A stretch of DNA of 32,000 bases, taken from positions 780,001-812,000 of the forward strand of contig NZ_CP080507.1 of assembly GCF_019464535.1 (NCBI RefSeq), written 5' to 3'. Each line of letters starts with the position of its first letter. The first letter of the stretch is position 1. The translations under genes were made by a program, and so were the position numbers. The notes beneath the pieces were generated by a model. That model saw only the letters and a program-made list of their open reading frames with translations, did no database searches and was not told the DNA's origin. Shown one piece after another: positions 2,567 to 15,897 of the stretch. The stretch is from Horticoccus luteus (GTDB lineage: Bacteria > Verrucomicrobiota > Verrucomicrobiia > Opitutales > Opitutaceae).

Positions 2567-3835
2567 CTACGCGGCGGGCGGGGCGAGATTGAGCGCCTTG
2601 ATGGGAAAACCGAAGCGGCGCTGGACCCAGCAGATCGCGAGAAAAACGTGGAAGCGCCACCAGAGCGGCCAGATGAGTTTCGCGTGGCCGGCGACGATGG
2701 AGGTGAGGCCGGGACTGAGATTCCAGGGGACCTGCGTCTCCATGAAAACGGCGAAGCTGGCGTTATCGTAGAACGCTTGGATGAGGCGCTCGAACGGGCG
2801 GACGTGGTGCTTCACGGCGCGGGTGTAGCGGCGGCGTTCGCGGAGGGAGAGCGGGCGGTTTTGCCGATCGGCGCGCGCGGCGAGGGCGACGGCGGTCTGC
2901 GCGGACCAGAGGGAAACGTAAACGCCGGAGGAGAAAATCGGGTCGGAGAAACCGGCGGCGTCGCCGATGAGGAGGGAGCGTTCGCCGGCGAGATCGCGGC
3001 GGAAATAGCTGTAATCGCTGGTGACGTGATAGGGCGTCGTGGCGACGGAGCCGGCGAGGAGTTCGCGGAGTTTGGGCGCTGCGTCGACGGTGGCGGCGAA
3101 GAGGGCGGCGGGGGCGAGGCCGCTGCGGCGCATGGTCTCGGTCGTGGTGACGAGGCCGACGGAGGTGATTTCGGCGTCGATCGGGATGACCCAGAACCAG
3201 CCGTCGACCAGGCGCACGACGATGGTGTGGCCGGCGGGGCGGCCGGGGGCGCGGGCGACGCCCCTGAAGTGGCTGTAAATGGCGAGGCGTTTCGGTTGAT
3301 GCGGCGGATCGAGGCGGCGTTTTTGCGCGGTGAGGAGCACGTTATCGCGGCCGGTGGCATCGAAGAGCCAGCGGGTGGAGACGAACGTGGTGGCGCCGGC
3401 GTGTTCGAGCGCGACGCGGTGTCCGCCGTCGATCGGTTCGACGGCGCGGGCGGTGGTTTGGAAGCGGACTTCGGCGCCGAGGGAGGCGGCGTGATCGAGG
3501 AGGAGGGTGTCGAATTTCGCGCGATCGACCTGATAGGTGTAATCGAGGCCGCGCACGAAGCCGGTGCTGAAATCGACGGTTTTGGTGGCGGCACCGTCGG
3601 CGGTGTGGAAGAGCGCGCCGTATTTCGGAATGAACCCGGCGGCTTCGACCCGCGGCCAGACGCCGATGTCGCGGAGGATGGCGTTGGCCATCGGCAGGAG
3701 TGATTCGCCGATGCGGAAGCGGGGAAACGTTTCTTTCTCAACCACCAAGGTGCGCCAGCCGTGACGTCGCGCGCAGGCCGCAGCGCAACTGCCGCCGGGA
3801 CCGCCGCCGATCACGAGGGCATCGTAATCAAACAT
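2567..3835 (-). CDS. flavin-dependent halogenase-like FAD oxidoreductase (PltA/CmlS/CndH-like subgroup)
   Basis: MFDYDALVIGGGPGGS (GxGxxG), FPRFRIGESLLP, Lys71 in FIPKYGALF, WxWxIP motif (DGWFWVIPID), GDAAGFSDPIFSSGV, and a hydrophobic C-terminus (IWPLWWRFHVFLAICWV). Confidence 0.8.
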   Translation of the reverse strand: MFDYDALVIGGGPGGSCAAACARRHGWRTLVVEKETFPRFRIGESLLPMANAILRDIGVWPRVEAAGFIPKYGALFHTADGAATKTVDFSTGFVRGLDYTYQVDRAKFDTLLLDHAASLGAEVRFQTTARAVEPIDGGHRVALEHAGATTFVSTRWLFDATGRDNVLLTAQKRRLDPPHQPKRLAIYSHFRGVARAPGRPAGHTIVVRLVDGWFWVIPIDAEITSVGLVTTTETMRRSGLAPAALFAATVDAAPKLRELLAGSVATTPYHVTSDYSYFRRDLAGERSLLIGDAAGFSDPIFSSGVYVSLWSAQTAVALAARADRQNRPLSLRERRRYTRAVKHHVRPFERLIQAFYDNASFAVFMETQVPWNLSPGLTSIVAGHAKLIWPLWWRFHVFLAICWVQRRFGFPIKALNLAPPAA

Positions 3836-3980
3836 GGGTCGGGAAAACGCGCGGAGTGGGAGCGGCCGCGGTCGTTGAAGGCGGCGAGAGAGGTGAAGGC
3901 GAACGGGAAGGGAAAGGCATCGGCGAGGGGGGTGCGATGTTGGCTAGCATTCGGGGCGGTTTTGCCGAAGCTTAATTTGC

Positions 3981-4850
3981 ATGCGCTGCTGGTTTCTCCG
4001 CCGCCTCCGCGGGTTGATGTTGCTGACGACGGTGGTCGGGGCGACAGCGGTGTGCCGGGCGGTCGCGCCCTCGTTCGCGGGCAATCTTAGTGGTGAACTG
4101 GCGTTGCCGGCGTGGCAGGGGGCGCCGCCGTTGACGTGGAAAATCGAATTCACGGAGGGGAAGCTTACCGTGGCGGTGCAGGGCGAGGGGACGGATTTGC
4201 ACGCAACGTTAACGCCGGGACGAGGCGACGATCCGATGAGCTGGGACCTCGCGCCGGGAAAAATGGCGGTGCCGCAGTGGACGCAGGGAAAGTTGTCGCG
4301 CGGGCACGCGACCGTGAGTGGGAAGGGCACGTGGAGCGGGGGGCGCGTGCGCGGGGTGTTGCGCTTTGAGTTGCGCGATCTGGCGTTGGGCGAGCTGGTG
4401 CGACTGGGCGATCCGGAGAGGAAACGCGTGCGTTCGGCGGAGGGGCGGGTGGAGGGGGAGATCACGTTGCGACTCAATGGGGACGGCACGATGAATCTCG
4501 CGGACAGCGATCTGCATCTCGCGCCGGGGACGAAGGCGCTGGTGGCGTTGGTGCCGACGCCGGGGTTGCTGACCGATATCGTGCCGGCGGCGGCGCGGAA
4601 GAATTATCCGGGACTGGGGGCGATGGAGCGCGGGGAGACGCCGCTGGAGGCGACGGTGTTGAGTTTGGTTTATTTCGCCGGTGGCGATGCGCAGGGGCGC
4701 GCGGCGAAGGTGCGGTTGGAAGGACATCCGCAGGATCCGGGGCAGATCGCGCCGCTGGAACTGGAGATCAACCTGACGGGGCCGGTGGAGCGGTTGGTGC
4801 GCGAGATGTCGGATTCGCGGCTGCATTTTCAGGCCGGTGGCGGGCGGTGA
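3981..4850 (+). CDS. membrane-anchored YdbH-like (AsmA-like family) protein, short form
   Basis: ATG at 3981. N-terminal hydrophobic anchor or signal (LRGLMLLTTVVGATAVCRAV), followed by beta-rich repetitive sequence. The assignment rests mainly on its position directly upstream of ynbE-like and ydbL-like genes, which matches the conserved ydbH-ynbE-ydbL order. Confidence 0.45.
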   Translation: MRCWFLRRLRGLMLLTTVVGATAVCRAVAPSFAGNLSGELALPAWQGAPPLTWKIEFTEGKLTVAVQGEGTDLHATLTPGRGDDPMSWDLAPGKMAVPQWTQGKLSRGHATVSGKGTWSGGRVRGVLRFELRDLALGELVRLGDPERKRVRSAEGRVEGEITLRLNGDGTMNLADSDLHLAPGTKALVALVPTPGLLTDIVPAAARKNYPGLGAMERGETPLEATVLSLVYFAGGDAQGRAAKVRLEGHPQDPGQIAPLELEINLTGPVERLVREMSDSRLHFQAGGGR

Positions 4851-4898
4851 GAAACATAAGTTGTGCTCCGCGTTCCAATCGATCACCCTCGCTTCCGC

Positions 4899-5096
4899 AT
4901 GAAACGCTTCCTTTTGCTGTCGTGCATTGCGGCTGGCCTGCTGGCGGGCGCCGGCTGTGTGCAAGTCGCCGTGAAGCCGATCCATATCACCGTCGATGTT
5001 AACGTGAAGGTGGACAAGGCGCTCGACGATTTCTTCGGCGAGTTGGACAGCAAGTCGGCCACCATCGAGCGTTCGTCCCACACTTCCCAGCCATGA
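4899..5096 (+). CDS. ynbE: YnbE-like small lipoprotein
   Basis: I trimmed the start to the ATG at 4899 (MKRFLLLSCIAAGLLAGAGCVQVAVKPIHITVDVNVKVDKALDDFF). It has a signal peptide with a lipobox-like AGC and a short beta-rich mature part resembling YnbE. Its stop overlaps the next start (ATGA at 5093-5096). Confidence 0.65.
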   Translation: MKRFLLLSCIAAGLLAGAGCVQVAVKPIHITVDVNVKVDKALDDFFGELDSKSATIERSSHTSQP

Positions 5097-5473
5097 AACT
5101 CTCATTTCTACGCCTTGGACTTTTTGCACTGGTGTTGAGCGGCACGACCGCGGTCGTGCTGCCCGCGCAAGACATGTCAGGGTTGCGCGCCCGCATGGAG
5201 GAACGCCTGCCGAAGATCGATGAAATGAAAGCGGATGGCGTGGTCGGCGAGGACAACCGCGGTTTTCTCGATGCGCGGACGACGTTATCGACGGGCCAGA
5301 ACCGAGCGATGGTGGACGAGAATCACGATCGCAGCACGGTTTACGGGATCATTGCGCGCAACTCCGGCACGTCGGCGGCGGACGTGGGGGCGGCGCGAGC
5401 GAAGAAGATCGCCGAGACGAGCAAACCGGGCGTGTGGCTGCAGAAAGAAAACGGCGAGTGGTATCGGAAGTAG
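5093..5473 (+). CDS. ydbL: YdbL-like periplasmic protein (DUF1318)
   Basis: Signal peptide, then GVVGEDNRGFLD...NHDRSTVYGIIARNSGTSAADVGAARAKKIAETSKPGVWLQKENGEWYRK. This matches the YdbL/DUF1318 pattern (G-E-x-x-x-G-[YF]-L ... PG-x-[YW]-x-Q...G-x-W-x-K). Confidence 0.72.
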   Translation: MKLSFLRLGLFALVLSGTTAVVLPAQDMSGLRARMEERLPKIDEMKADGVVGEDNRGFLDARTTLSTGQNRAMVDENHDRSTVYGIIARNSGTSAADVGAARAKKIAETSKPGVWLQKENGEWYRK

Positions 5474-5601
5474 GCGGCGGGGCCACAGAGGCAGCAGGAG
5501 GGCGCGAGGTGGGCGGGGGCGTTGACCCGGATTGAAGATGATCAGTGGGGCTCGGAACCGAGATATTTCTCGGTGTGAAATTTGCCTCCGGTCTTTGGGT
5601 G

Positions 5602-5623
5602 CGCTCCGCGGCTCGGCGGAGCG
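5602..5623. terminator. GC hairpin between convergent ydbL-like and SRAP genes
   Basis: cgctccgc-ggctcg-gcggagcg forms an 8-bp perfect stem with a 6-nt loop. A second, weaker hairpin lies at 5557-5574 (accgaga-tatt-tctcggt). Neither has a clear U-tract. Confidence 0.25.
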
Positions 5624-5637
5624 AGAAATATGCAGGC

Positions 5638-6354
5638 CTAGAAAAGTTCAGGCTGCGTTTGCTTTGGCGGGGGCGGGGCGACGGGGGTGAGGATTTCGGG
5701 GACGTCGTTGCGCGGGGAATTCACAAGGCTCGAAATCGGCGTCGCTTCCATGTCTTCGGCAGGATGCGGAGCGGTCAAACCGGCCACCGCTTCAGGCGTG
5801 AGTTCGCCGGGGCGCAGCCAGGCGCGGGCTTCCTCGTCGTCGAGAATCGCGGGCATGCGGTCGTGAATGCGTTGCATCACGGCATTGGGGCCGGTGGTTA
5901 GAATCGCGAAGGTCGCGGGGCGGGTCTCCGTGGCTTTTTCGTAAACGCCGGCCATCACGAAGGGACGGTTGCCGCGGAGGTGAATGTCGAAGGGGAACTT
6001 CGTTTTCTCGTCGTAGCGCAGCCACTCGTAAAAACCGTCGGCGGGCACGAGGCAGCGGCGTTGCTGCACGGCGCGGCGGAAGAGGGCGTTGGTGACGATG
6101 CCTTCCGATTTGGCGTTGATCGGGGCGAGTTTCGGGCGGTCGGATTTGTCCCAAAACGGGACGAAGCCCCAGCGCATGAAAGAGGGGACGATCACATCGC
6201 CTTCTTCGTCCATGGTGAGCACGGGGAGATCGTAGCTGGGCGCGATGTTGTAGTGCGGAAATGTTTGGTCGGGGACCCAGTCGGGGATGTGAAAGGTGTC
6301 GCGCAAGTGGCGCGTGAGCACGTCGGTGTCTTTGATTCGATAGCGTCCGCACAT
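5638..6354 (-). CDS. SOS response-associated peptidase (SRAP/YedK family, abasic-site DNA-protein crosslink)
   Basis: I trimmed the start to the ATG at 6354, which gives MCGRY with the catalytic Cys2. Also present: NIAPSYDLPVL, PADGFYEW and IHDRMPAIL, the hallmark SRAP motifs. Confidence 0.88.
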   Translation of the reverse strand: MCGRYRIKDTDVLTRHLRDTFHIPDWVPDQTFPHYNIAPSYDLPVLTMDEEGDVIVPSFMRWGFVPFWDKSDRPKLAPINAKSEGIVTNALFRRAVQQRRCLVPADGFYEWLRYDEKTKFPFDIHLRGNRPFVMAGVYEKATETRPATFAILTTGPNAVMQRIHDRMPAILDDEEARAWLRPGELTPEAVAGLTAPHPAEDMEATPISSLVNSPRNDVPEILTPVAPPPPKQTQPELF

Positions 6355-6494
6355 GGGTGTGAAATTAACCAAAGGCCGGGCGCGGGCAAATCGTGGCGTG
6401 AGTGCGGACGGCGTGGCGTGCGCGAGGCGGCGGGAGCCGGCGTGCGTTGCGCGATGCGGCGTGCGTTAGCGCGAGGCGAAGGGGAGTCGTGACC

Positions 6495-6519
6495 TCCGGC
6501 CGCGCGGGTCGCGCGGCCG
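6495..6519 (-). terminator. strong GC hairpin immediately 3' of the nupC-like gene
   Basis: ccggccgcgcg-ggt-cgcgcggccgg forms an 11-bp perfect stem with a 3-nt loop. It starts 2 nt past the stop codon (6522-6524 on the minus strand). No U-tract follows. Confidence 0.35.
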
Positions 6520-9185: not shown

Positions 9186-10274
9186 ATGCTTATCGGAGTC
9201 CCCAAAGAAATTAAAATCGGTGAAACGCGCGTCTCGATGACGCCGAGTCTTTGCCGCCGTTGCGTTTCGCTCGGCGGCAATGTGGTGGTGCAAAAAGGCG
9301 CCGGCGAAAGTGCCGGCTTCACGGACGCGGAGTATCGGGCGGCAGGCGCGGCGATCGCGACCACCGCGCAGAAAGTCTGGCGCAGCGCCGACCTGATTCT
9401 GAAAGTGAAGGAGCCCCTCGAGGCGGAATACGGGCATCTGCGCGAAGGGCAGACGTTGTTCACATACCTGCATCTCGCAGCGGGAGCGGAGCTGGCGAAG
9501 GTGTTGTTGAAAAAGCGGGTTCTCGGGATCGCTTACGAGACGGTGGAGGGCGTCGATGGCCAATTCCCGCTGCTGAAACCGATGTCGCAAATCGCGGGGC
9601 GGCTCGCGATCCAGATCGGGGCGTATTTTCTGCAATCGCAGCACGGCGGCTCCGGGGTGTTGCTCGGCGGCATCCCCGGCACGATGCCCGGCCACGTGGT
9701 GGTCGTGGGCGCGGGGAATTCCGGGGCGCATGCGGTGCAGATGGCGGTCGGCATGGGCGCGCGGGTGACGGTGCTCGATCTCGACACCCGCAAACTCGAG
9801 GCGCTCGACATCGAATATCGCGGGCGCGTGGTGACGTTGATGTCGAATCCGGCGAACATCGAGCTGGCGGTGGCGAGTGCGGATTTGCTGGTGGGCGCGG
9901 TGCTGATTCCGGCGGCGAAGGCGCCGACGGTAGTGAAGAAAAAAACGGTGGCGAAGATGCGGCCCGGCAGCGTGATCGTGGACATCGCGATCGACCAGGG
10001 CGGTTGCATCGAGAGCATTCATCCGACGTCGCATGAATCGCCGACTTACCGGCAGCACGGGGTGATTCATTACGCGGTGCCGAACATGCCCGCGCTCGTG
10101 GGGCGCACGTCGACGATCGGGTTGACGCAGGCCACGGAGCCTTACGTGGCGATGCTGGTGCAGAAAGGCGTGGCGCGGGCGCTCGCGGAGCACAAGGGCC
10201 TCGCGCGCGGTGTGAACACGCAGGACGGCAAGATCACGTACGACGCGGTCGCGAAGGCGCTCGGCTATTCGTGA
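9186..10274 (+). CDS. ald: alanine dehydrogenase
   Basis: I trimmed the start to the ATG at 9186 (MLIGVPKEIKIGETRV). Also KVKEP, the NAD-binding VVVVGAGNSGAHA, VDIAIDQGGC and HYAVPNMPA. Confidence 0.9.
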   Translation: MLIGVPKEIKIGETRVSMTPSLCRRCVSLGGNVVVQKGAGESAGFTDAEYRAAGAAIATTAQKVWRSADLILKVKEPLEAEYGHLREGQTLFTYLHLAAGAELAKVLLKKRVLGIAYETVEGVDGQFPLLKPMSQIAGRLAIQIGAYFLQSQHGGSGVLLGGIPGTMPGHVVVVGAGNSGAHAVQMAVGMGARVTVLDLDTRKLEALDIEYRGRVVTLMSNPANIELAVASADLLVGAVLIPAAKAPTVVKKKTVAKMRPGSVIVDIAIDQGGCIESIHPTSHESPTYRQHGVIHYAVPNMPALVGRTSTIGLTQATEPYVAMLVQKGVARALAEHKGLARGVNTQDGKITYDAVAKALGYS

Positions 10275-12169
10275 AGCTTCGCGCGATCAGGCGCGGTGCG
10301 GCGGCGAACGCCAAGGCGGGCGGCGGATCGCTGGTGCGCGGGGCAAAGGCGTTCGTGCGCGTGGCGGTGACGGTCACGGCGGCGGTCGTCGCGGGTTTGC
10401 TCGCGGTCGCGGCGCGCACGGCGGAGGCGGGTGACGGCTGGCTGGCGGTGGAGACGGAGCATTTCACGGTGTTGACAACGGGCGCGGCGGGGCCGGCGGA
10501 AAATTGGGCGCGCGAGCTGGAGATGTTTCGCATCGGTCTCGGGAAGATCATGCCGGCCAACGCGGCGAAGTTGCAGCCGGTGGCGGTGGTGTTGTTTCCG
10601 AACGACGCGGCGTTTCAGCCGTTCAAGCCGGTGCAGAACGGGCGGTCGGCGCAGGTGGCGGGATTCTTCGCGCGGGCGGACGGCGTGAACGCGATCGGCC
10701 TCAGCGCGAGTCGCAAGGCGGAGGAGACGCGCCGCGTCATTTTTCACGAGGCGACGCACTGGTTTTCCAACGCGCTGGATGAGCCGCTGCCGGTGTGGCT
10801 CGACGAGGGAACGGCGGAAGTTTACTCGACGTTTCACGTGACGGGTGAGCGGGAGTTTGTGGTGGGCGAGCCGCCGCCGGACAGCGTGCGGTTGCTGCGC
10901 GCCCGGGGTCTGCCGCCGCTGGAGGCGTTGGTGAACCGGCCGCGCGACCGGCTCGATCTGAACGGCGGGGAGGAGACGGCGCGGTTTTACGCGGAGGCGT
11001 GGTTGTTCGTGCACTGGCTGATGTTTGGCGAAGCTTCGCCGGGCACGGGCGCGATCCTGCATTATCGCGAGGAGTTGCGCGCGACGGGGGATCCGGCGCG
11101 CGCGTTTGCGGCGGCGTTTGGCGGCAACTATGGCGACGTGCAGCAGCGGTTGGAGGACTACATGGCGTCGGGCCGTTACATCCGGCAGAAATTTACGCTG
11201 GCGGCGGGCGAGGTGGTGCGAGTGTCGGCGGCGCGGCCGGTGCGGCCCGGCGAGGTGGAGTTTGCCTTGGGGGCGTTGTTGCTCGGAGCGCAGGGGGCGC
11301 CCGCGGCGCTGCCGTATTTGCAACGGGCGGTGGCGTTGAACCCGAGCGAATCGCGGCGGTGGAGTTCTTTGGCGTTTGCGCAACTGCGCAACCATGACGA
11401 CGCGGGGGCGTTGCAATCGCTGGACCGGGCGACGGCGATGGGTTCGCCGGATGCGTTGGTGTGGACCAATCGCGCGGCGTTGCGGCTGGCATCGCACGGG
11501 AACGGCCAGGGCGTGTTGTTCAGCGCGGACGGAGCGGTGTTCGCAGCGGCGGCGGCGGACTATCGAAAAGCGCTCACGCTCGATCCGCTGTGTCGCGCAG
11601 CGTATGTGGGGCTTGCCGGGGTGGCGGCGGGCGCGGAGCCGGCGGACGCGCGGGACGTGGGGCGGTTGCGGCGCGGGCGGGAACTGTTTCCCCACGACCC
11701 GATGATCCGGGTGGGTTACGCGTGCGTGCGGCTGGCGACGGAGCCGATCGCGGCGGAGCGGGAATTGCAGGCGGTGTTGCGGCAGAAAACGTTGTCACCG
11801 GCGACGCGGTTGATCGCGGAAGGGGCGTTGCAGGGGCAGCGGTGGACGCGGCTGGCGGCGGAGATTGCGACGCAGAGTGCGGCGCGAAATTACGCGGCGG
11901 TGGTGCAGGCGATCGATGCGGGACTGGCGGCGGGTTTCAGCGAACCGAACCGGCGGGAGTTGGTGGCGTTGCGGCGGCAGGCAGACCAGATGCGGCGGAT
12001 TCAAGACGCGGTCGATGGGATGAACCGCGGGGAGATCGAGCGCGCGCGCGGGCTGTTGCAGGCCGTGGCCGCGGAGGGTCCGGCCACGACGGAGATCCGC
12101 GACGAGACGCAGCGGTTGTTGCGCGAGTGCGAGGCGCGGCGGCCGAAAGCGCGTCCGCGGCGGCGGTAG
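10271..12169 (+). CDS. secreted/anchored MA-clan zinc-peptidase-like protein (Peptidase_MA_2/DUF1570-like) with C-terminal TPR-like repeats
   Basis: Signal/anchor segment AFVRVAVTVTAAVVAGLLAVAARTAEA. HEATH is encoded at 10745-10759 and followed by PVWLDEGTAEVY, giving the HExxH...W-x-x-EG-x-A-x-Y pattern. The C-terminal half is Ala/Leu-rich and helical-repeat-like. The start is uncertain: the GTG at 10271 overlaps the ald stop, and in-frame alternatives exist up to about 10334. Confidence 0.6.
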   Translation: MKLRAIRRGAAANAKAGGGSLVRGAKAFVRVAVTVTAAVVAGLLAVAARTAEAGDGWLAVETEHFTVLTTGAAGPAENWARELEMFRIGLGKIMPANAAKLQPVAVVLFPNDAAFQPFKPVQNGRSAQVAGFFARADGVNAIGLSASRKAEETRRVIFHEATHWFSNALDEPLPVWLDEGTAEVYSTFHVTGEREFVVGEPPPDSVRLLRARGLPPLEALVNRPRDRLDLNGGEETARFYAEAWLFVHWLMFGEASPGTGAILHYREELRATGDPARAFAAAFGGNYGDVQQRLEDYMASGRYIRQKFTLAAGEVVRVSAARPVRPGEVEFALGALLLGAQGAPAALPYLQRAVALNPSESRRWSSLAFAQLRNHDDAGALQSLDRATAMGSPDALVWTNRAALRLASHGNGQGVLFSADGAVFAAAAADYRKALTLDPLCRAAYVGLAGVAAGAEPADARDVGRLRRGRELFPHDPMIRVGYACVRLATEPIAAERELQAVLRQKTLSPATRLIAEGALQGQRWTRLAAEIATQSAARNYAAVVQAIDAGLAAGFSEPNRRELVALRRQADQMRRIQDAVDGMNRGEIERARGLLQAVAAEGPATTEIRDETQRLLRECEARRPKARPRRR

Positions 12170-12290
12170 CGGAGTGAGGAAAGAAGGCGTCGTGAAACGG
12201 TGAACAGTCGTTAACGGCTTGTAACCGGGGAGGGGAAGTGATGCGTCTCACGTCGCGCTGACCGGCCGTCGGCATCGCGCTTTCCCCCTC

Positions 12291-13049
12291 ATGAAAAAAT
12301 CCCTGTTCTGGCGGTTGGGTGGCGGGCTTTTGCTGTTGAGCGCGGGCTGGCTTCCGGCGCAGGACACGCTGGACATCGGCGTGCGCTCGTCGATCGAGTT
12401 GCCGACATGGAAGCGGCCCAAGCCCGGGACGATGCCGGCAGCGGACGCGCAGGAGGGCCGGCTTTTCATTCTCGCTCCACCGGAGCGCATTCACTCGCTG
12501 GAGAAGCTGGTGCGGCCGGTGAATACGGAGCCACTGGTGGAAGAACTGTGGCGCCAGTTGGTGGCGCATGGCTTCCAGCCGGCGGCGCCGGGCCAGACGC
12601 CGGATATCGTGGTGACGTTGCACTACGGACGCGGCTATTTGCGCAATCCGTATATCGACTCCTACGCTTCAGCGGTGGACGAATCGACGTCGACGCCGAC
12701 GGTGATGATCACCGTGCCGACGATCGACGTGAAGAAGATCGGGATGGAAGAGAAAATCCAGCGGGCGCAATACGAGAAACTGTTGCTGGCGGTGACGGCT
12801 TGGAAGTATGTGAAGCCTGAAGCGGGGCGGAAGCAGAAGCCGGTGCGGTTGTGGCGGACGACGATCCTCGTGGATGACCCGGACCACCGTGATCTCAACG
12901 AACTGGCCGCGCGGATGCTCAATGCGGGCGCGGGTTACTTCAACAGCGACGTGGACAAAGAGGCGGAAATCCACGAGCCGATGCGCGAGGGGCGCGTCGA
13001 GATGGGCGAACCGGTGGAAGTGAAGCGACACGAGAATTCAACGAAATGA
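12291..13049 (+). CDS. secreted hypothetical protein, paralog 1 of a tandem pair
   Basis: ATG at 12291. Signal peptide MKKSLFWRLGGGLLLLSAGWLPAQD. It is full-length collinear with the next ORF (see findings). I recognise no family with confidence. Confidence 0.65.
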   Translation: MKKSLFWRLGGGLLLLSAGWLPAQDTLDIGVRSSIELPTWKRPKPGTMPAADAQEGRLFILAPPERIHSLEKLVRPVNTEPLVEELWRQLVAHGFQPAAPGQTPDIVVTLHYGRGYLRNPYIDSYASAVDESTSTPTVMITVPTIDVKKIGMEEKIQRAQYEKLLLAVTAWKYVKPEAGRKQKPVRLWRTTILVDDPDHRDLNELAARMLNAGAGYFNSDVDKEAEIHEPMREGRVEMGEPVEVKRHENSTK

Positions 13050-13864
13050 ACACAAATACGATGAAGGCGACTTGGTGGGTGAGAGCGGCACTGCTGGTCG
13101 GCGGCGGGCTGGCTGGTGGGTTGATCGGCGCGAGCGCGCAGGAAGGCACCGGCGACGTGGAGATCATTGTGCGCACGCAGGTGACGGAGGGGAAGAGGGC
13201 CGCCAAGCCGGGCGGCGACTCGCTGCAGCAAGCAGCAGCAGAGCACGGGAAAGCGTATGTGCTGCTGCTCGCGGAGCAGCCGAAGTCCATTTACAAACTC
13301 GTGAATCCGGTGGATCCGCAGGCGATCGCGGATGAGGTGTCGAAGCAACTCGACGCGCATGGTTTCCACCGCGTCGCGCCCGGGGCGAAGCCGGACATCG
13401 TGATCACCGTGAAATTCGGCCGCGGGATGATGCCCAATCCGTATTATGACGACACGTCGGCGATCGACGACACGATGCCCGACCCAGGCAACTGGATCGA
13501 TCCGGCCAGTGCGCCGCAGATCACCGTGACAAGTCCCAAACTGGCCCAACGGCTCGCGGTTGCGGGCGTGAGCGGCAAGGCGACGAAGGCGCAGTATGAA
13601 AAACTTTTCGTGACGGTGCGCGCGTGGAAATACCCGTCGTCGCCGCAGGAGAAACCGGAGGTGTTGTGGATCGCGGCGATGAACGTCGACGATCCCGATC
13701 ACCGCGATCTGAACACATTTTACAAGGCGATGATCGCCGCGGGAGCGCCGTATTTCGACCGCCGCTTGGACGAGGAGGAAGTGAGCGTGCGGCGGCCGTT
13801 GCGCAATGGACACGTGGAGATCGGCGAGCAGGTGGAAGTGGCACGCGAGCCGGAGAAGAAGTGA
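13046..13864 (+). CDS. secreted hypothetical protein, paralog 2 of a tandem pair
   Basis: The ATG at 13046 overlaps the previous stop (ATGA). An alternative ATG at 13061 gives MKATWWVRAALLVGGGLAGGLIGASAQE. It shares the motifs PDIV[VI]T, GRG..NPY, AQYEKL, AWKY, VDDPDHRDLN, AGA.YF and G.VE.GE.VEV with the preceding protein. Confidence 0.65.
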   Translation: MNTNTMKATWWVRAALLVGGGLAGGLIGASAQEGTGDVEIIVRTQVTEGKRAAKPGGDSLQQAAAEHGKAYVLLLAEQPKSIYKLVNPVDPQAIADEVSKQLDAHGFHRVAPGAKPDIVITVKFGRGMMPNPYYDDTSAIDDTMPDPGNWIDPASAPQITVTSPKLAQRLAVAGVSGKATKAQYEKLFVTVRAWKYPSSPQEKPEVLWIAAMNVDDPDHRDLNTFYKAMIAAGAPYFDRRLDEEEVSVRRPLRNGHVEIGEQVEVAREPEKK

Positions 13865-15897
13865 AATTTGCGCGGGGGGGGGTGAGCCGGATTGGAGCGC
13901 GATTTTTAACGTGGGCGGTGTTCGTCGCGGCCCTGGCGCTGGTGCGCGCGGTGGGCGCGCCGGAGGAGGAGGCGCGGCATCATTTCGACATTCCGGCCGG
14001 CGCGGCGGAAACGACGCTGCGGAAATTCAGCAAGCAGGCGGGCGAGGACGTGGTGTTTCCCAAGGATTTGGTGCGCGACGTGCGGACGGCGGCGGTGCGG
14101 GGCGATTTCGAGGCGCAGGAAGCGTTGGAACGCATGACGCAAGGCACGCCGCTGGTGGTGAGCCGCCGGTCGCCGAAGGCGGCCTTGGTGCTCGCGCGGC
14201 GCGCGGATTCGCCGGCGCAGATCATCGCGCTGCCGCCCTACCTGGTGGAAGACTCCGTCACGCCGCCGTGGCGTTATGCGCAGGCGCCGGGACTGGAGGT
14301 GATTTCGCGTTGTCCGGACGATTTTGTAAGCGAACTCGTGGCGACCAACGATCGTTTGCGGCAGTTGCTGGAGTTGATTCTGCCGGCGCGGTTGCAGTGG
14401 CATAGCGATGTGCCGACGGCGTATGTGTTGCTCAGTGACCAGACCTCGCCGGCGGCGACGCGGGAATTGCTGGCGAAGCTGCAGGAGCGGGCGACCAGCG
14501 GGGCGGAGGTCACGGTGCGGACGATCCCCAACTACCGGTTTGCCGACGCCGATGCGCTCGCGGTGTTTTTTATTTTCAACGAGAATCTCGGAACGCCGCA
14601 GCAACTGGTGCTGACGCCGGGCTACCTGCGCTATTTGATGGAGAACCGGGTGCCGGCGCTGCCGCGCTGGTTCGTCGAAGGGCTGCTGAAAATTTATGAG
14701 AACGCGCAGGTGACGACGACGCCGTTCGGGACTTCCCTCGCGCGCGCCGACACGGCGTTTTTCCGGCCGCGGACGGACTTTTCTCGCGGCGTGCCGCCGG
14801 CGGCGGAGGACCGGAATCGCATCGTGCTGCCGCCGGTGACGTGGAGCGCCCTGACGGCGTCGGGAAAAAAGGACGACGACGCAGAGAAGGCCGGCTGGAT
14901 GCCGCTGGCGGCGCTGCTGGCGGAGGGACCGGCTCAAGCGGAGGCGGATCCCACCGCGGTTTTGCGGGGCGAGGAAGCGGCGCTGCTGATTCGCTGGGCC
15001 TTGGACGATGCGAAGGGCGAACGGGCGGAGGCGTTGTGGAGGTTCGTCGACGCGTGCAGCCGGGCACCGGCGGCGGAGCGGGCGTTTACCGCGAGCTTTG
15101 GGCTGACTTACGCCGAGGCGGAAACGCAGCTCCGCAAGTATTTGCCGAGCGTGGGGAAGAAATCCGTTGTGCTGCGTCGGACGCAGATGGACGAAGCGCC
15201 GACGGTGGAGTTGCGCGATGCGACGGCGGAGGAAGTGGCGCGCCTCAAGGGCGATCTCAGCCGGCTGGAGGTGGGCTACATCCGGGAATTTCAGCCGGTG
15301 CTCACGGAAAAATATCTCGCGCAGGCGCAGCGGGTGCTCCGGCGCGCCTACGACCGTGGCGATCGCGATCCGCGATTGCTGGCGATCATGGGATTGTGCG
15401 CGTGTGACGCTGGTGACGACGCGGCGGCGCGGCCGTTGCTCGAGGCTGCGGCGGGCGCGGGCGTGGTGCGGCCGAGAGTATATTTCGAACTGGCCCGCAT
15501 CGTTTACGCCGAGGCGCGCGCGCACGCGGCCGGGGGCGAACTCGCGCGAGCGGAGCAGGAGCAGGTGCTGAGGTGGCTGGCCGCGGGTCGTCGGCAGGCG
15601 CCGGCGCTGCCGCAGGTTTACGATTTATACGCGGCGCTGTGGCTGCAGGCACGGACGCGACTTGAGCGGGGCGACCTCGCGGTGTTGGACGAAGGGCTGG
15701 CGCTCTTTCCGCGCCGGGTGCGGCTCATTTACGGCGCGGCGATGTTGAACGCCTTGAGTGGGGAGGCGGCGCGGGCGGTCGCGTTGACGCAGCAGGGTCT
15801 GGCGCTGGCACCGGAGGCGACGATGCGGGAGCATTTGGAAAAGCTCCAAGCAGTGCTGACGACGGCAGAGGCGGCGGAAACAAAAAAGGGCCGCTGA
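13861..15897 (+). CDS. secreted STN-domain protein fused to an HExxH-less peptidase_MA-like domain and TPR-like repeats
   Basis: The proposed GTG start at 13861 overlaps the previous stop (GTGA). An alternative GTG lies at 13882. Signal peptide ARFLTWAVFVAALALVRAVGA. The STN-like segment HHFDIPAGAAETTLRKFSKQAGEDVVFPKDLVRDVRTAAVRGDFEAQEALERMTQGTPLVV spans about 13978-14202. The middle domain is collinear with gene 10271-12169, but TPGYL replaces HEATH. The C-terminus is TPR-like. Confidence 0.6.
   Translation: MKFARGGVSRIGARFLTWAVFVAALALVRAVGAPEEEARHHFDIPAGAAETTLRKFSKQAGEDVVFPKDLVRDVRTAAVRGDFEAQEALERMTQGTPLVVSRRSPKAALVLARRADSPAQIIALPPYLVEDSVTPPWRYAQAPGLEVISRCPDDFVSELVATNDRLRQLLELILPARLQWHSDVPTAYVLLSDQTSPAATRELLAKLQERATSGAEVTVRTIPNYRFADADALAVFFIFNENLGTPQQLVLTPGYLRYLMENRVPALPRWFVEGLLKIYENAQVTTTPFGTSLARADTAFFRPRTDFSRGVPPAAEDRNRIVLPPVTWSALTASGKKDDDAEKAGWMPLAALLAEGPAQAEADPTAVLRGEEAALLIRWALDDAKGERAEALWRFVDACSRAPAAERAFTASFGLTYAEAETQLRKYLPSVGKKSVVLRRTQMDEAPTVELRDATAEEVARLKGDLSRLEVGYIREFQPVLTEKYLAQAQRVLRRAYDRGDRDPRLLAIMGLCACDAGDDAAARPLLEAAAGAGVVRPRVYFELARIVYAEARAHAAGGELARAEQEQVLRWLAAGRRQAPALPQVYDLYAALWLQARTRLERGDLAVLDEGLALFPRRVRLIYGAAMLNALSGEAARAVALTQQGLALAPEATMREHLEKLQAVLTTAEAAETKKGR

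Follow-up and report, generated by a model that had tools for sequence, protein, structure and literature searches.

To our knowledge, every characterised FecR-type anti-sigma factor takes its input from the STN domain of a barrel, and the TonB clients characterised to date fall into two groups, 22-strand outer-membrane transporters and the toxins that parasitise them. What, then, does an STN domain do on an exported protein that has no barrel? The question is raised by a gene of Horticoccus luteus (Opitutaceae) at positions 13861-15897 of the window, the 32 kb stretch of DNA analysed here (all features with coordinates lie on its forward strand). The product is 100% identical to the NCBI entry "STN domain-containing protein [Horticoccus luteus]", which says nothing further about it. 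An initial annotation of the locus described an STN domain with no β-barrel behind it, a homologous peptidase-like domain without HExxH, and TPRs, and proposed that the protein acts as a periplasmic adaptor or signal relay. Every element of this architecture was confirmed: the STN match is significant, no HExxH emerges on alignment, and no frameshift or sequencing error hides a barrel.

Architecture of the STN protein

The gene encodes 678 residues. The ORF call, domain searches and an AF2 model give the order Sec signal peptide, STN domain, flexible linker with a TonB-box-like motif, ~310-aa peptidase-like domain and TPR-like solenoid. We place the start at GTG 13861, which shares the bases GTGA with the TGA of the preceding gene and has a GGAG 5 nt upstream. 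Translation from here produces a proper signal peptide with a K/R n-region, a hydrophobic core and VRA/VGA (aa 1 to about 30-33, 13861-13959), read from the sequence as MKFARGGVSRIGARFLTWAVFVAALALVRAVGA. AF2 models a helix within it, at aa 11-30. The start chosen by NCBI corresponds to residue 20 of the 678-aa version and cuts into the signal peptide.

The STN, or N-terminal signalling, domain covers aa about 39-115 (13975-14205), in agreement with its earlier placement at about 13978-14202. Pfam PF07660 matches aa 64-109 with 28.9 bits (E 9.9e-7), a small margin over the gathering score of 28.4, and the N-terminal stretch 10-97 of the NCBIfam FecA equivalog is matched with E 1.9e-6. A PDB search with aa 31-135 retrieved the signalling domains of four solved transducers: HasR (2m5j, E 4.4e-6) and FpvA (E 6.6e-6), both in the range of about 4e-6 to 1e-5, followed by FemA (E 3e-4) and PupB (E 1.7e-3). 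Each match spans about 77-81 residues of the STN region. The nearest STN outside the family belongs to an Opitutaceae-type TonB-dependent receptor, P0026 (46% identity). AF2 confidence is low in the STN region because only two sequences cover it.

No barrel follows the STN domain. The AF2 model (pLDDT 77.8, pTM 0.74) shows one domain that is alpha/beta plus helical and a solenoid of helices, but no barrel, and Pfam and NCBIfam searches of the product gave no match to a plug (PF07715) or a 22-strand barrel (PF00593). The ORF is intact, and a convergent cyclophilin gene begins 40 nt past its end, leaving no room for a barrel. A truncated or frameshifted transducer with a chance STN match was also considered. 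The Pfam score, just 0.5 bits over the gathering score, speaks for such an artefact, but the same architecture occurs in 23 independent cluster representatives and at 10 genomic loci. Together with the four solved signalling domains, the intact ORF and the barrel-free model, this leaves the artefact a negligible probability.

The C-terminal part, aa about 456-676 (15226-15888), forms a TPR-like helical solenoid, as had been suggested. It consists of paired helices with pLDDT of about 90-98 in the AF2 model, matches TPR proteins in Foldseek (E 6e-5, probability 1.0) and aligns in hhalign with the TPR region of the family of a paralogue-like neighbour, the product of gene 10271-12169. Pfam gave no TPR match in the product and weak ones in 5 of 25 relatives.

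A peptidase-like domain without a metal site

The domain between linker and solenoid, aa about 135-440 (14263-15180), resembles DUF1570/Peptidase_MA_2 proteins. The neighbour, 10271-12169, encodes an exported DUF1570/Peptidase_MA_2-like protein with TPRs, in which HEATH (10745-10759) and WLDEG are intact. The two proteins had been described as collinear. Both aligned blocks were reproduced by hhalign of the STN protein against an alignment of 10271-protein homologues (99.35% probability, E 6.2e-21), and the homology extends over 444 aligned columns that include the MA-like and TPR regions. Pairwise BLASTP of the two proteins returned nothing (E 3.2); phmmer with the 10271 protein as query matched divergent family members directly (E 5e-10). 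R-x-P-x-L-P-x-W-x-x-x-G scaffold residues are common to the family and the TPR-bearing DUF1570/Peptidase_MA_2 proteins. The DUF1570/Peptidase_MA_2 label is reached through the homologues of the 10271 protein: Pfam DUF1570 (PF07607) and Peptidase_MA_2 (PF13485) gave no direct match for the STN protein, the 10271 protein or 24 relatives, but five of seven 10271 homologues matched DUF1570 and three matched Peptidase_MA_2. A Foldseek search with a model of the domain alone gave no significant match; the list was headed by M1 aminopeptidases, TAF2 (7edx_B), M61 and lugdulysin (best E 0.09).

In the hhalign and family alignments, the place of H-E-x-x-H is taken by P-G-Y-L-R (P253-G254-Y255-L256-R257, 14617-14631). 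The loss had been recognised before and assigned to TPGYL (14614-14628); the HEATH of the paralogue aligns one residue to the right. HExxH is absent from all 169 family representatives, at neither ligand column does His rank in the top six residues, and Gly, Asp or Glu stands in place of the catalytic Glu, without conservation. The STN-bearing clade shares the loss, which is a property of the whole family and not of this subset. W-F-V-E-G (14668-14682) is the equivalent of the W-L-D-E-G "glutamate helix" of the paralogue. The initial annotation considered this element kept, which is true of the H. luteus protein, with E273 at the third metal ligand position, and of W270 (168/169) and G274 (164/169) family-wide, but not of the Glu itself (71/169).

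An active hydrolase with a non-canonical site, serving as a regulated periplasmic protease on FecR or envelope proteins, could draw on the retained E273 and on D229, D231, R263 and W270, which are conserved in 160 to 168 of 169 representatives. We consider it highly improbable, given that neither ligand position has a conserved His, that E273 varies and that HExxH is found in none of the 169. The domain is predicted to be catalytically dead.

The position of 10271-12169 next to a family gene is not conserved at any other locus, and the gene is therefore probably not part of the signalling system discussed below.

A TonB-box-like motif in the linker

Behind the STN domain, the motif IIALPPYLVED (aa 121-131, 14221-14253) lies in a flexible linker with pLDDT <50 over aa 115-130 in the AF2 model. 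The corresponding family motif, V-V-E-L-P-P-[FY]-x-V-E-E at the mature N-terminus, is conserved in about 99% of members, with L124, P125, P126 and V129 kept in 151-160 of 161 representatives. It is found at median residue 36, directly behind the signal peptide, in STN-less members and at residue 118 in STN-bearing ones.

TonB-dependent transporters of Verrucomicrobiota read VVELSPFxV-x4-DxGY right before the plug. L[SP]PF.V stands just ahead of the plug in 89 of 114 such N-termini. A scan of 588,417 aa from six-frame ORFs for L[SP]P[FY].V matched family members and one TonB-dependent transporter only. A profile derived from the transporters gives its highest score in the H. luteus product at aa 119-131, a similarity that is only moderately significant when this protein is taken alone (reached by 33/1000 shuffles, p about 0.03). 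In 151 of 161 relatives the profile ranks the same motif first; the score of the 10271 protein does not rise above background. Its position and its similarity to transporters of the same phylum make L-P-P-[FY]-x-V a putative TonB box; the literature searched contains no experimentally verified Verrucomicrobial TonB box.

STN-bearing relatives and ECF sigma/FecR pairs

The family is large: 2372 matches fall within E<=1e-3, and 821 clusters remain at E<=1e-30. All genome-placed relatives belong to Opitutaceae or other Verrucomicrobiota, and the remainder lie on taxonomically unassigned metagenome contigs. Two traits mark this family, which has so far been placed only in Opitutaceae and other Verrucomicrobiota: the TonB-box-like motif and the missing metal site. 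Genomes carry multiple paralogues, five in one MAG. A C-terminal PDZ domain is an optional addition, and family genes are often accompanied by genes for small exported proteins or lipoproteins, with up to six lipoprotein genes in tandem downstream.

An STN domain is present in about 14% of representatives (23 cluster representatives; 169 examined). Its presence correlates with an ECF sigma and FecR pair directly upstream, sometimes accompanied by exbB-exbD-tonB. FecR is encoded directly upstream of 6 of 10 informative STN-bearing genes versus 1 of 67 STN-less genes (Fisher p 6e-6); the single STN-less case is an artefact, and the count is otherwise 0/66. Six of the 10 informative STN-bearing genes are located directly downstream of an ECF sigma/FecR pair. 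exbBD/tonB genes accompany 3/10 STN loci versus 2/97 other loci (p 0.005), and in two loci of STN-bearing relatives exbB-exbD-tonB occur together with sigma/FecR. One of them, L001, has the order exbB-exbD-tonB-tonB-sigma-fecR-STNcore, followed by a second sigma-fecR-STNcore; L010 has the same arrangement. Other orders are sigma-fecR-lipA-lipA-STNcore (L009), fecR-STNcore (L023) and fecR-lipA-STNcore (L038). The FecR partner is canonical, with DUF4880, FecR and a weak FecR_C. Besides the H. luteus gene, the STN-bearing genes of L007 and L025 are orphans. Since about 86% of the family have neither an STN domain nor sigma/FecR neighbours, signalling is not the primary function of the family as a whole.

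The H. luteus operon and a candidate promoter

The STN gene is the last of a three-gene operon, and the 32 kb window contains no sigma, FecR, ExbBD or TonB genes. The first gene (12291-13049) encodes an exported 252-aa protein with a Sec signal, no lipobox Cys and no significant Pfam match. The second (13046-13864) encodes an exported 272-aa paralogue of the first (41% identity, E 1e-50) with a weak DUF4136 match under the cut-off (E 0.0021); its start and stop overlap the flanking genes, an arrangement of translational coupling. Homologues of the first gene are found in L009, where two copies separate fecR from the STN-core gene, in L038, in the same position, and in L012, after an STN-less member.

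A motif search of the window detected an ECF-sigma-type promoter-like element, TGTAAC-N18-CGTC, at 12220-12247. It sits 44 bp upstream of ATG 12291, inside a 121-bp intergenic gap. No other exact match exists in the 32 kb, and none of 100 shuffled versions produced one. Among the relatives, L001 and L010 have TGTAAC-N18-CGTC ahead of their sigma genes, L001 has it again between fecR2 and an STN-core gene, and in L005 and L018 it precedes family genes; the equivalent place in L009, between fecR and the lipA-like gene, has TGTAAC-N16-CGTA. The element is a candidate promoter of the three-gene operon.

Proposed role and alternatives

The sigma/FecR and exbB-exbD-tonB neighbours of the relatives, together with the TonB-box-like motif, strongly favour the adaptor or signal-relay role, which we infer for the H. 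luteus product. We judge it somewhat better than an even chance that the protein is the sensor/relay subunit of a FecI/FecR-type pathway, akin to cell-surface signalling, in which the barrel has been replaced by a soluble exported ligand-binding module. It would thus be a barrel-less partner of a FecR-type anti-sigma factor, resembling a TonB-dependent transducer.

A possible mechanism takes canonical signalling as its template (PMC12036975, PMC9249621). The product would leave the cytoplasm by Sec and remain periplasmic, perhaps held there by the small proteins of its operon. With its STN domain it would bind a FecR-type anti-sigma factor at the C-terminal, periplasmic domain; the gene for this factor would lie elsewhere in the H. 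luteus genome. Access to the putative TonB box may change when the dead peptidase cleft or the TPR groove takes up a peptide or protein ligand. Engagement of the putative box by TonB would displace or pull the STN domain, FecR would be proteolysed, and the freed ECF sigma factor would transcribe from TGTAAC-N18-CGTC promoters, including 12220-12247.

Several points weigh against this reading. A soluble protein gives TonB no obvious anchor to pull against, and the sigma, FecR, ExbBD and TonB genes are absent from the 32 kb window of the H. luteus copy, with L007 and L025 as further orphans. The TonB box is putative and the motif similarity moderate in this protein by itself, AF2 confidence is low for the STN region, the fold match of the core domain to MA-clan peptidases is non-significant, and about 86% of the family have neither STN nor sigma/FecR neighbours.

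The N-terminal order of signal peptide, STN domain, short flexible linker and TonB-box(-like) motif is the same as in the TonB-dependent transducers FecA, FpvA, PupB, HasR and FoxA. The relatives also share with FecI/FecR-coupled transducers the gene order sigma-fecR-transducer, at times with exbBD-tonB; as with fecA, a promoter-like element separates fecR from the genes after it. Major differences are that the plug and 22-strand barrel are replaced by a ~560-aa soluble pseudo-peptidase and TPR-like module, and that the window copy is not beside a sigma/FecR pair. Without plug and barrel, the product cannot transport or sense cell-surface ligands by the known route. Compared with TPR-bearing DUF1570/Peptidase_MA_2 proteins, the family lacks HExxH and a conserved third ligand and has gained the N-terminal TonB-box-like motif and an optional STN or PDZ domain. 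In M1/gluzincin pseudo-peptidases such as TAF2, a zincin-like fold serves as a binding module without catalytic residues, as may be the case here; the fold match is non-significant, there is no detectable sequence relationship, and the context is the bacterial periplasm and signalling.

The orphan position of the window copy, away from any sigma/FecR pair, would also suit a decoy or buffer: a soluble STN protein that senses nothing and either sequesters the periplasmic domain of FecR or occupies TonB, stabilising the anti-sigma factor or damping the signal from ordinary barrel transducers. When the signalling domain of FecA is expressed separately in the periplasm, it competes for FecR and fec induction is inhibited (PMC9249621), and PMC11637429 describes transducers that shield the anti-sigma factor from proteolysis as long as no signal is present. 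In L001, L010, L009, L023 and L038, though, an STN-core gene and not a barrel transducer follows the sigma-fecR pair, so that the cognate partner appears to be the STN-core protein. Nor would a decoy need a conserved 560-aa ligand-binding-like module and a TonB box, and we regard this explanation as unlikely. The prevalence of members with neither STN nor TonB-system neighbours, the frequency of small exported proteins and lipoproteins as partners and the inferential assignment of the TonB box would instead fit a scaffold or chaperone unrelated to TonB, such as a TPR/pseudo-peptidase protein-binding factor in envelope biogenesis. L-P-P-[FY]-x-V would then have another purpose, for example β-augmentation with a partner, sorting or tethering, and the STN domain of the subset would merely recruit the protein to FecR. 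Against this, 89 to 107 of 114 transporters from the phylum have the same motif where the TonB box lies, the six-frame ORFs show it in these two protein classes only, and exbBD-tonB is enriched beside STN-bearing members; such a scaffold seems improbable to us.

Colicins B, M and Ia, pyocins S2 and M, and pesticin have no barrel and carry their TonB box near the N-terminus, in a disordered stretch. The family resembles them in combining a TonB-box-like motif with the lack of a barrel, and a flexible N-terminal TonB box on a non-barrel protein is otherwise known from bacteriocins. A bacteriocin-like or nutrient-scavenging protein might be secreted and pulled back through a TonB-dependent transporter by its box; the small lipoproteins, whose genes come after many members in rows of up to six, would in that case provide immunity or act as partners. 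In contrast to these bacteriocins, the family has no cytotoxic domain, is linked to the producer's own sigma/anti-sigma genes and is a multi-paralogue family of Verrucomicrobiota. No linked toxin domain, lysis gene or secretion system was found, and the family shows no evidence of release from the cell. The several paralogues per genome weigh against secretion as well. An STN domain ahead of the TonB box and the link to FecR speak for residence in the producer's own periplasm, and re-import is very unlikely.

A role in FecI/FecR-type signalling, the reading we prefer for the H. luteus protein, suggests a wider one for the family. It is conceivable, at a little less than an even chance, that the Opitutaceae pseudo-peptidase/TPR proteins are soluble exported TonB clients with a TonB box at the mature N-terminus, neither outer-membrane barrels nor bacteriocins, and that the STN subset replaces FecA as cognate transducer of FecI/FecR-type pairs, reporting a periplasmic or partner-delivered peptide or protein ligand in place of one at the cell surface. 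The family points to an undescribed wiring of TonB-type signalling. If this is true, the STN/TonB-box "signalling head" would be a portable cassette, TonB-dependent signalling would reach non-transport sensors, and a tractable soluble system would be at hand to study the release of FecR on TonB engagement. The family would also be a clear case of a zincin peptidase fold reused as a binding domain, with the fold match itself non-significant. For hundreds of Verrucomicrobial proteins annotated as hypothetical, it would provide a testable role.

An STN domain without a barrel

The ORF at 13861-15897 (+) is intact and lies in a chromosomal segment with a GC content of ~66%. Its product is 100% identical to the NCBI entry 'STN domain-containing protein [Horticoccus luteus]' (Opitutaceae, Verrucomicrobiota), encoded on a 4.32 Mb contig. 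The database start corresponds to residue 20 (659 aa), which leaves out positions 13861-13918 and with them the charged n-region of the signal peptide. Starting at GTG 13861, the protein carries a classical Sec signal peptide, MKFARGGVSRIGARFLTWAVFVAALALVRAVGA. This codon and the stop codon of the gene before it overlap (GTGA), and a GGAG lies five bases upstream; given this Shine-Dalgarno sequence and the stop/start overlap, GTG 13861 is a better start than the annotated one. At the other end, 40 nt separate the ORF from a convergent cyclophilin gene. The terminator hairpin of that gene overlaps the stop codon, and no coding space is left downstream for a hidden barrel. The GC skew is positive in all 1-kb bins of the window (1-32000; 0.06 to 0.36, mostly 0.15-0.3). 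The + strand is consistently G-rich over these 32 kb, and the skew is unusually high for a bacterial chromosome.

The initial annotation proposed an STN domain that is not followed by a barrel, and both parts of this claim hold. Pfam PF07660 is passed narrowly (28.9 bits vs a gathering score of 28.4, E 1e-6), and only the N-terminal 10-97 of the NCBIfam FecA equivalog is matched. With residues 31-135 as query, signalling domains of known structure are matched along the whole length of each domain: HasR (E 4e-6), FpvA (7e-6), FemA (3e-4) and PupB (2e-3). Judged from its sequence, the STN domain is genuine and of the transducer type. The AlphaFold2 model (25-sequence alignment, pLDDT 77.8, pTM 0.74) contains no barrel and predicts an alpha/beta plus helical domain at about residues 135-440 and a helical solenoid at residues 456-676, the latter with pLDDT above 90. 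A Foldseek search with the full-length model matches TPR proteins only, corresponding to the solenoid. The protein resembles FecA-type transducers at its N-terminus, but does not have the plug and barrel that define FecA.

A TonB-box-like motif follows the STN domain

Upstream of the DUF1570-homologous region, the protein and its relatives share the motif V-V-[EA]-L-P-P-[FYLM]-[LIV]-V-E-[ED], followed by P-W-R-Y. Its L, P, P and V residues are conserved in 151-160 of 161 family sequences. The version found here is IIALPPYLVED (residues 121-131), in a segment with pLDDT below 50. The motif is located straight after the signal peptide in STN-less members (median residue 36) and straight after the STN domain in STN-bearing ones (residue 118).

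TonB boxes of FhuA, BtuB and FecA are established to lie just before the plug (PMC9249621). TonB-dependent transporters of the same phylum contain x-V-V-E-L-S-P-F-x-V-x4-D-x-G-Y immediately before the plug, and L[SP]PF.V is matched by 89 of 114 of their N-termini. In the six-frame ORFs of the window and the first 29 loci (588,417 residues), this pattern is confined to family members and the only transporter encoded there. When a profile built from transporters only was applied, the conserved motif scored higher than any other window along the whole protein in 151/161 relatives. A BLOSUM-based transporter profile ranks residues 119-131 of the H. luteus protein first, with a score reached by 33 of 1000 shuffles; a frequency-based PSSM from transporters does not rank its motif first, because Y127 and P125 stand where transporters have F and S. 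Based on the shared position and the similarity to the transporter motifs, we read residues 121-131 as a putative TonB box.

The core is related to DUF1570 proteins and has lost the metal site

The region downstream of the STN domain had been described as collinear with the product of the gene at 10271-12169 (the 10271 protein). Pairwise BLASTP does not detect this relationship (E 3.2), so that a profile-profile comparison was needed. With 25 homologues of the STN protein and 7 of the 10271 protein, it gave 99.35% probability (E 6e-21) over 444 columns and recovered the aligned blocks proposed earlier. With the 10271 protein as query, phmmer directly matches divergent members of the STN protein's family (E 5e-10). 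The expected Pfam/NCBIfam assignment to DUF1570 or Peptidase_MA_2 failed for both proteins; the DUF1570/Peptidase_MA_2 plus TPR label belongs to the 10271 family, through homologues of the 10271 protein.

The 10271 protein retains an intact HEATH (10745-10759) and WLDEG. The GTG start of its gene overlaps the stop codon of an alanine dehydrogenase gene. As its adjacency to the STN gene is conserved in no other locus, the 10271 gene was rejected as a component of the system.

The STN protein is homologous to DUF1570/Peptidase_MA_2 proteins but is missing their defining HExxH. Its replacement was correctly recognized in the initial annotation, but the residues aligned with HEATH are P253-G254-Y255-L256-R257 (14617-14631), shifted rightwards by one position relative to the proposed TPGYL. 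Searches of PDB sequences with both family profiles returned TPR matches only, or nothing, for the N-terminal domain. Foldseek with the domain-only AlphaFold2 model found nothing significant, the list being led by M1 aminopeptidases, TAF2, M61 and lugdulysin; the fold match of the core domain is weak.

With cut-offs of E<=1e-3 and E<=1e-30, a profile search for the family found 2372 and 821 cluster representatives, respectively. In a genome scan for relatives, with a 7-sequence alignment as query, 25/25 recovered genome loci were from Opitutaceae or Verrucomicrobiota MAGs. Conservation of the HExxH loss among STN-bearing proteins was borne out, as the motif is absent from all 169 representatives, but the loss is family-wide and not specific to these proteins. 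P/A/T and R/A predominate in the two His columns, D/E/G occupies that of the catalytic Glu, and the third-ligand Glu is retained in only 71/169. The absence of HExxH and the variability of the ligand columns argue that the metal site was lost in the ancestor of the whole family, and that its loss is not peculiar to STN-bearing proteins. Near-invariant scaffold residues include R263, P265, L267, P268, W270 and G274. Cys151 and Cys412 are each kept in 137-138 of the 169 representatives and may form a disulfide, as is typical of exported proteins; in the H. luteus protein, C151 (14311-14313) is kept and position 412 (15094-15096) is Ser.

The STN domain is carried by only 23/169 representatives, and a few members have a C-terminal PDZ domain. 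STN-bearing members are not monophyletic in a crude NJ tree (about 11 state changes), which is too rough to interpret. The MAG CAZGJZ01 (loci L001, L022, L025) encodes at least five paralogues, three with STN. Divergent STN-less members occur on the metagenome contigs L096, L099, L104, L106, L107 and L109, often as two adjacent tandem paralogues.

STN-bearing members are often linked to sigma-FecR loci

The closest STN-bearing homologue, P0002 (47% identity), is encoded in locus L001 in the order exbB-exbD-tonB-tonB-ECF sigma-FecR-P0002-lipoprotein-PDZ paralogue-lipoprotein. The FecR protein of this cluster contains DUF4880, FecR and weak FecR_C domains. A second sigma-FecR pair, followed by another STN-bearing paralogue, is found 3 kb further. 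The pattern recurs in L010 (with exbBD-tonB), L009, L023 and L038. A FecR gene lies <=2.5 kb upstream on the same strand of 6/10 informative STN-bearing genes vs 1/67 STN-less genes (p 6e-6), the single STN-less case being the latter half of an STN gene that carries a frameshift. Genes for exbBD/tonB are present in 3/10 STN loci vs 2/97 others (p 0.005), and STN-less members have unrelated gene contexts. No sigma, FecR, ExbB, ExbD or TonB gene was found in the 32 kb window by tblastn and HMM searches.

In locus L075, a canonical sigma-fecR-STN-bearing cluster (2573-6501, -) is convergent to an STN-less family member. Its third gene is an 849-aa ORF with STN and without the family core, presumed to encode a barrel transducer of the ordinary kind; in that case, these bacteria would have classical systems side by side with barrel-less ones.

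The STN gene is translationally coupled to two upstream tandem paralogues at 12291-13049 and 13046-13864 (252 and 272 aa; 41% identity, E 1e-50), which are exported, have no lipobox and match DUF4136 only weakly, below threshold. A role in tethering or as partner proteins is possible. Homologues follow an STN-less member in L012, and in L009 and L038 they occupy exactly the interval between fecR and the STN gene; the operon in the window therefore corresponds to the downstream half of the L009 cassette.

Upstream of the operon, 44 bp from its first gene, lies a promoter-like element, TGTAAC-N18-CGTC (12220-12247). It is the sole exact match in the window, and 0/100 shuffles contained any match. 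Relatives have the element in front of sigma genes (L001, L010), of family genes (L005, L018) and of the second STN gene of L001, where it lies between fecR and the STN gene, the same placement as for fecA. L009 has a variant inside the gap between fecR and the homologue of the upstream paralogues. In its sequence, 12220-12247 resembles an ECF-type promoter common to the sigma/FecR loci of the relatives. No such motif precedes the orphan STN genes of L007 and L025. Matches at L001 8697, L009 6739 and L010 5263 fall within sigma ORFs, are explained by the conserved coding sequence there (V-T-D-F), and were discarded. A looser match, TGTAAT-N19-CGTC, is located at 3010-3038, in an unrelated region of the window.

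Many family members, STN-bearing or not, are followed by small proteins of a second (g174-type) family (L001 12008-12532 and 15186-15767; L022 12241-17163; L018 12226-14449). Their genes can be arrayed in tandem, with up to six copies in L022 and three in L018. The L001 pair, whose sequences were read completely, are lipoproteins (lipobox e.g. LLTGC). No homologue of the g174-type lipoproteins is encoded in the window, and Pfam does not match them.

A possible barrel-less transducer

In the canonical pathway, ligand binding exposes the TonB box of the transducer, TonB binds and thereby displaces or pulls the STN domain, which holds the C-terminal fragment of FecR, and FecR is degraded, freeing the sigma factor (PMC12036975, PMC9249621). 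The architecture, conservation and gene linkage described here are direct observations: the H. luteus protein has a complete 'signalling head' (STN, linker and TonB-box-like motif), followed by a soluble pseudo-peptidase/TPR module in place of plug and barrel. Such a protein is most economically read as a barrel-less transducer. Its localisation, its binding to TonB and FecR, and its ligand are what we infer: the ligand would be a peptide or protein bound in the dead cleft or in the groove of the TPRs, and the cognate FecR and sigma factor would be encoded elsewhere in H. luteus. On this reading, TonB would have to apply force to a protein that is not anchored.

An artefact was excluded as the explanation. 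We consider it less probable that the protein is a decoy for FecR or TonB, or that it serves as a scaffold independent of TonB. Lower probability is likewise given to an imported bacteriocin-like protein and to a non-canonical hydrolase.

In the ECF classification, FecR-type groups are associated with TonB-dependent receptors, Spirochaetes providing exceptions (PMC7826278). In the literature searched, we found no account of a FecR partner with STN but without a barrel, nor of the function of DUF1570. A barrel-less transducer would be of much interest to research on TonB and ECF sigma factors, although the case for it is purely computational and the copy in the window is an orphan.
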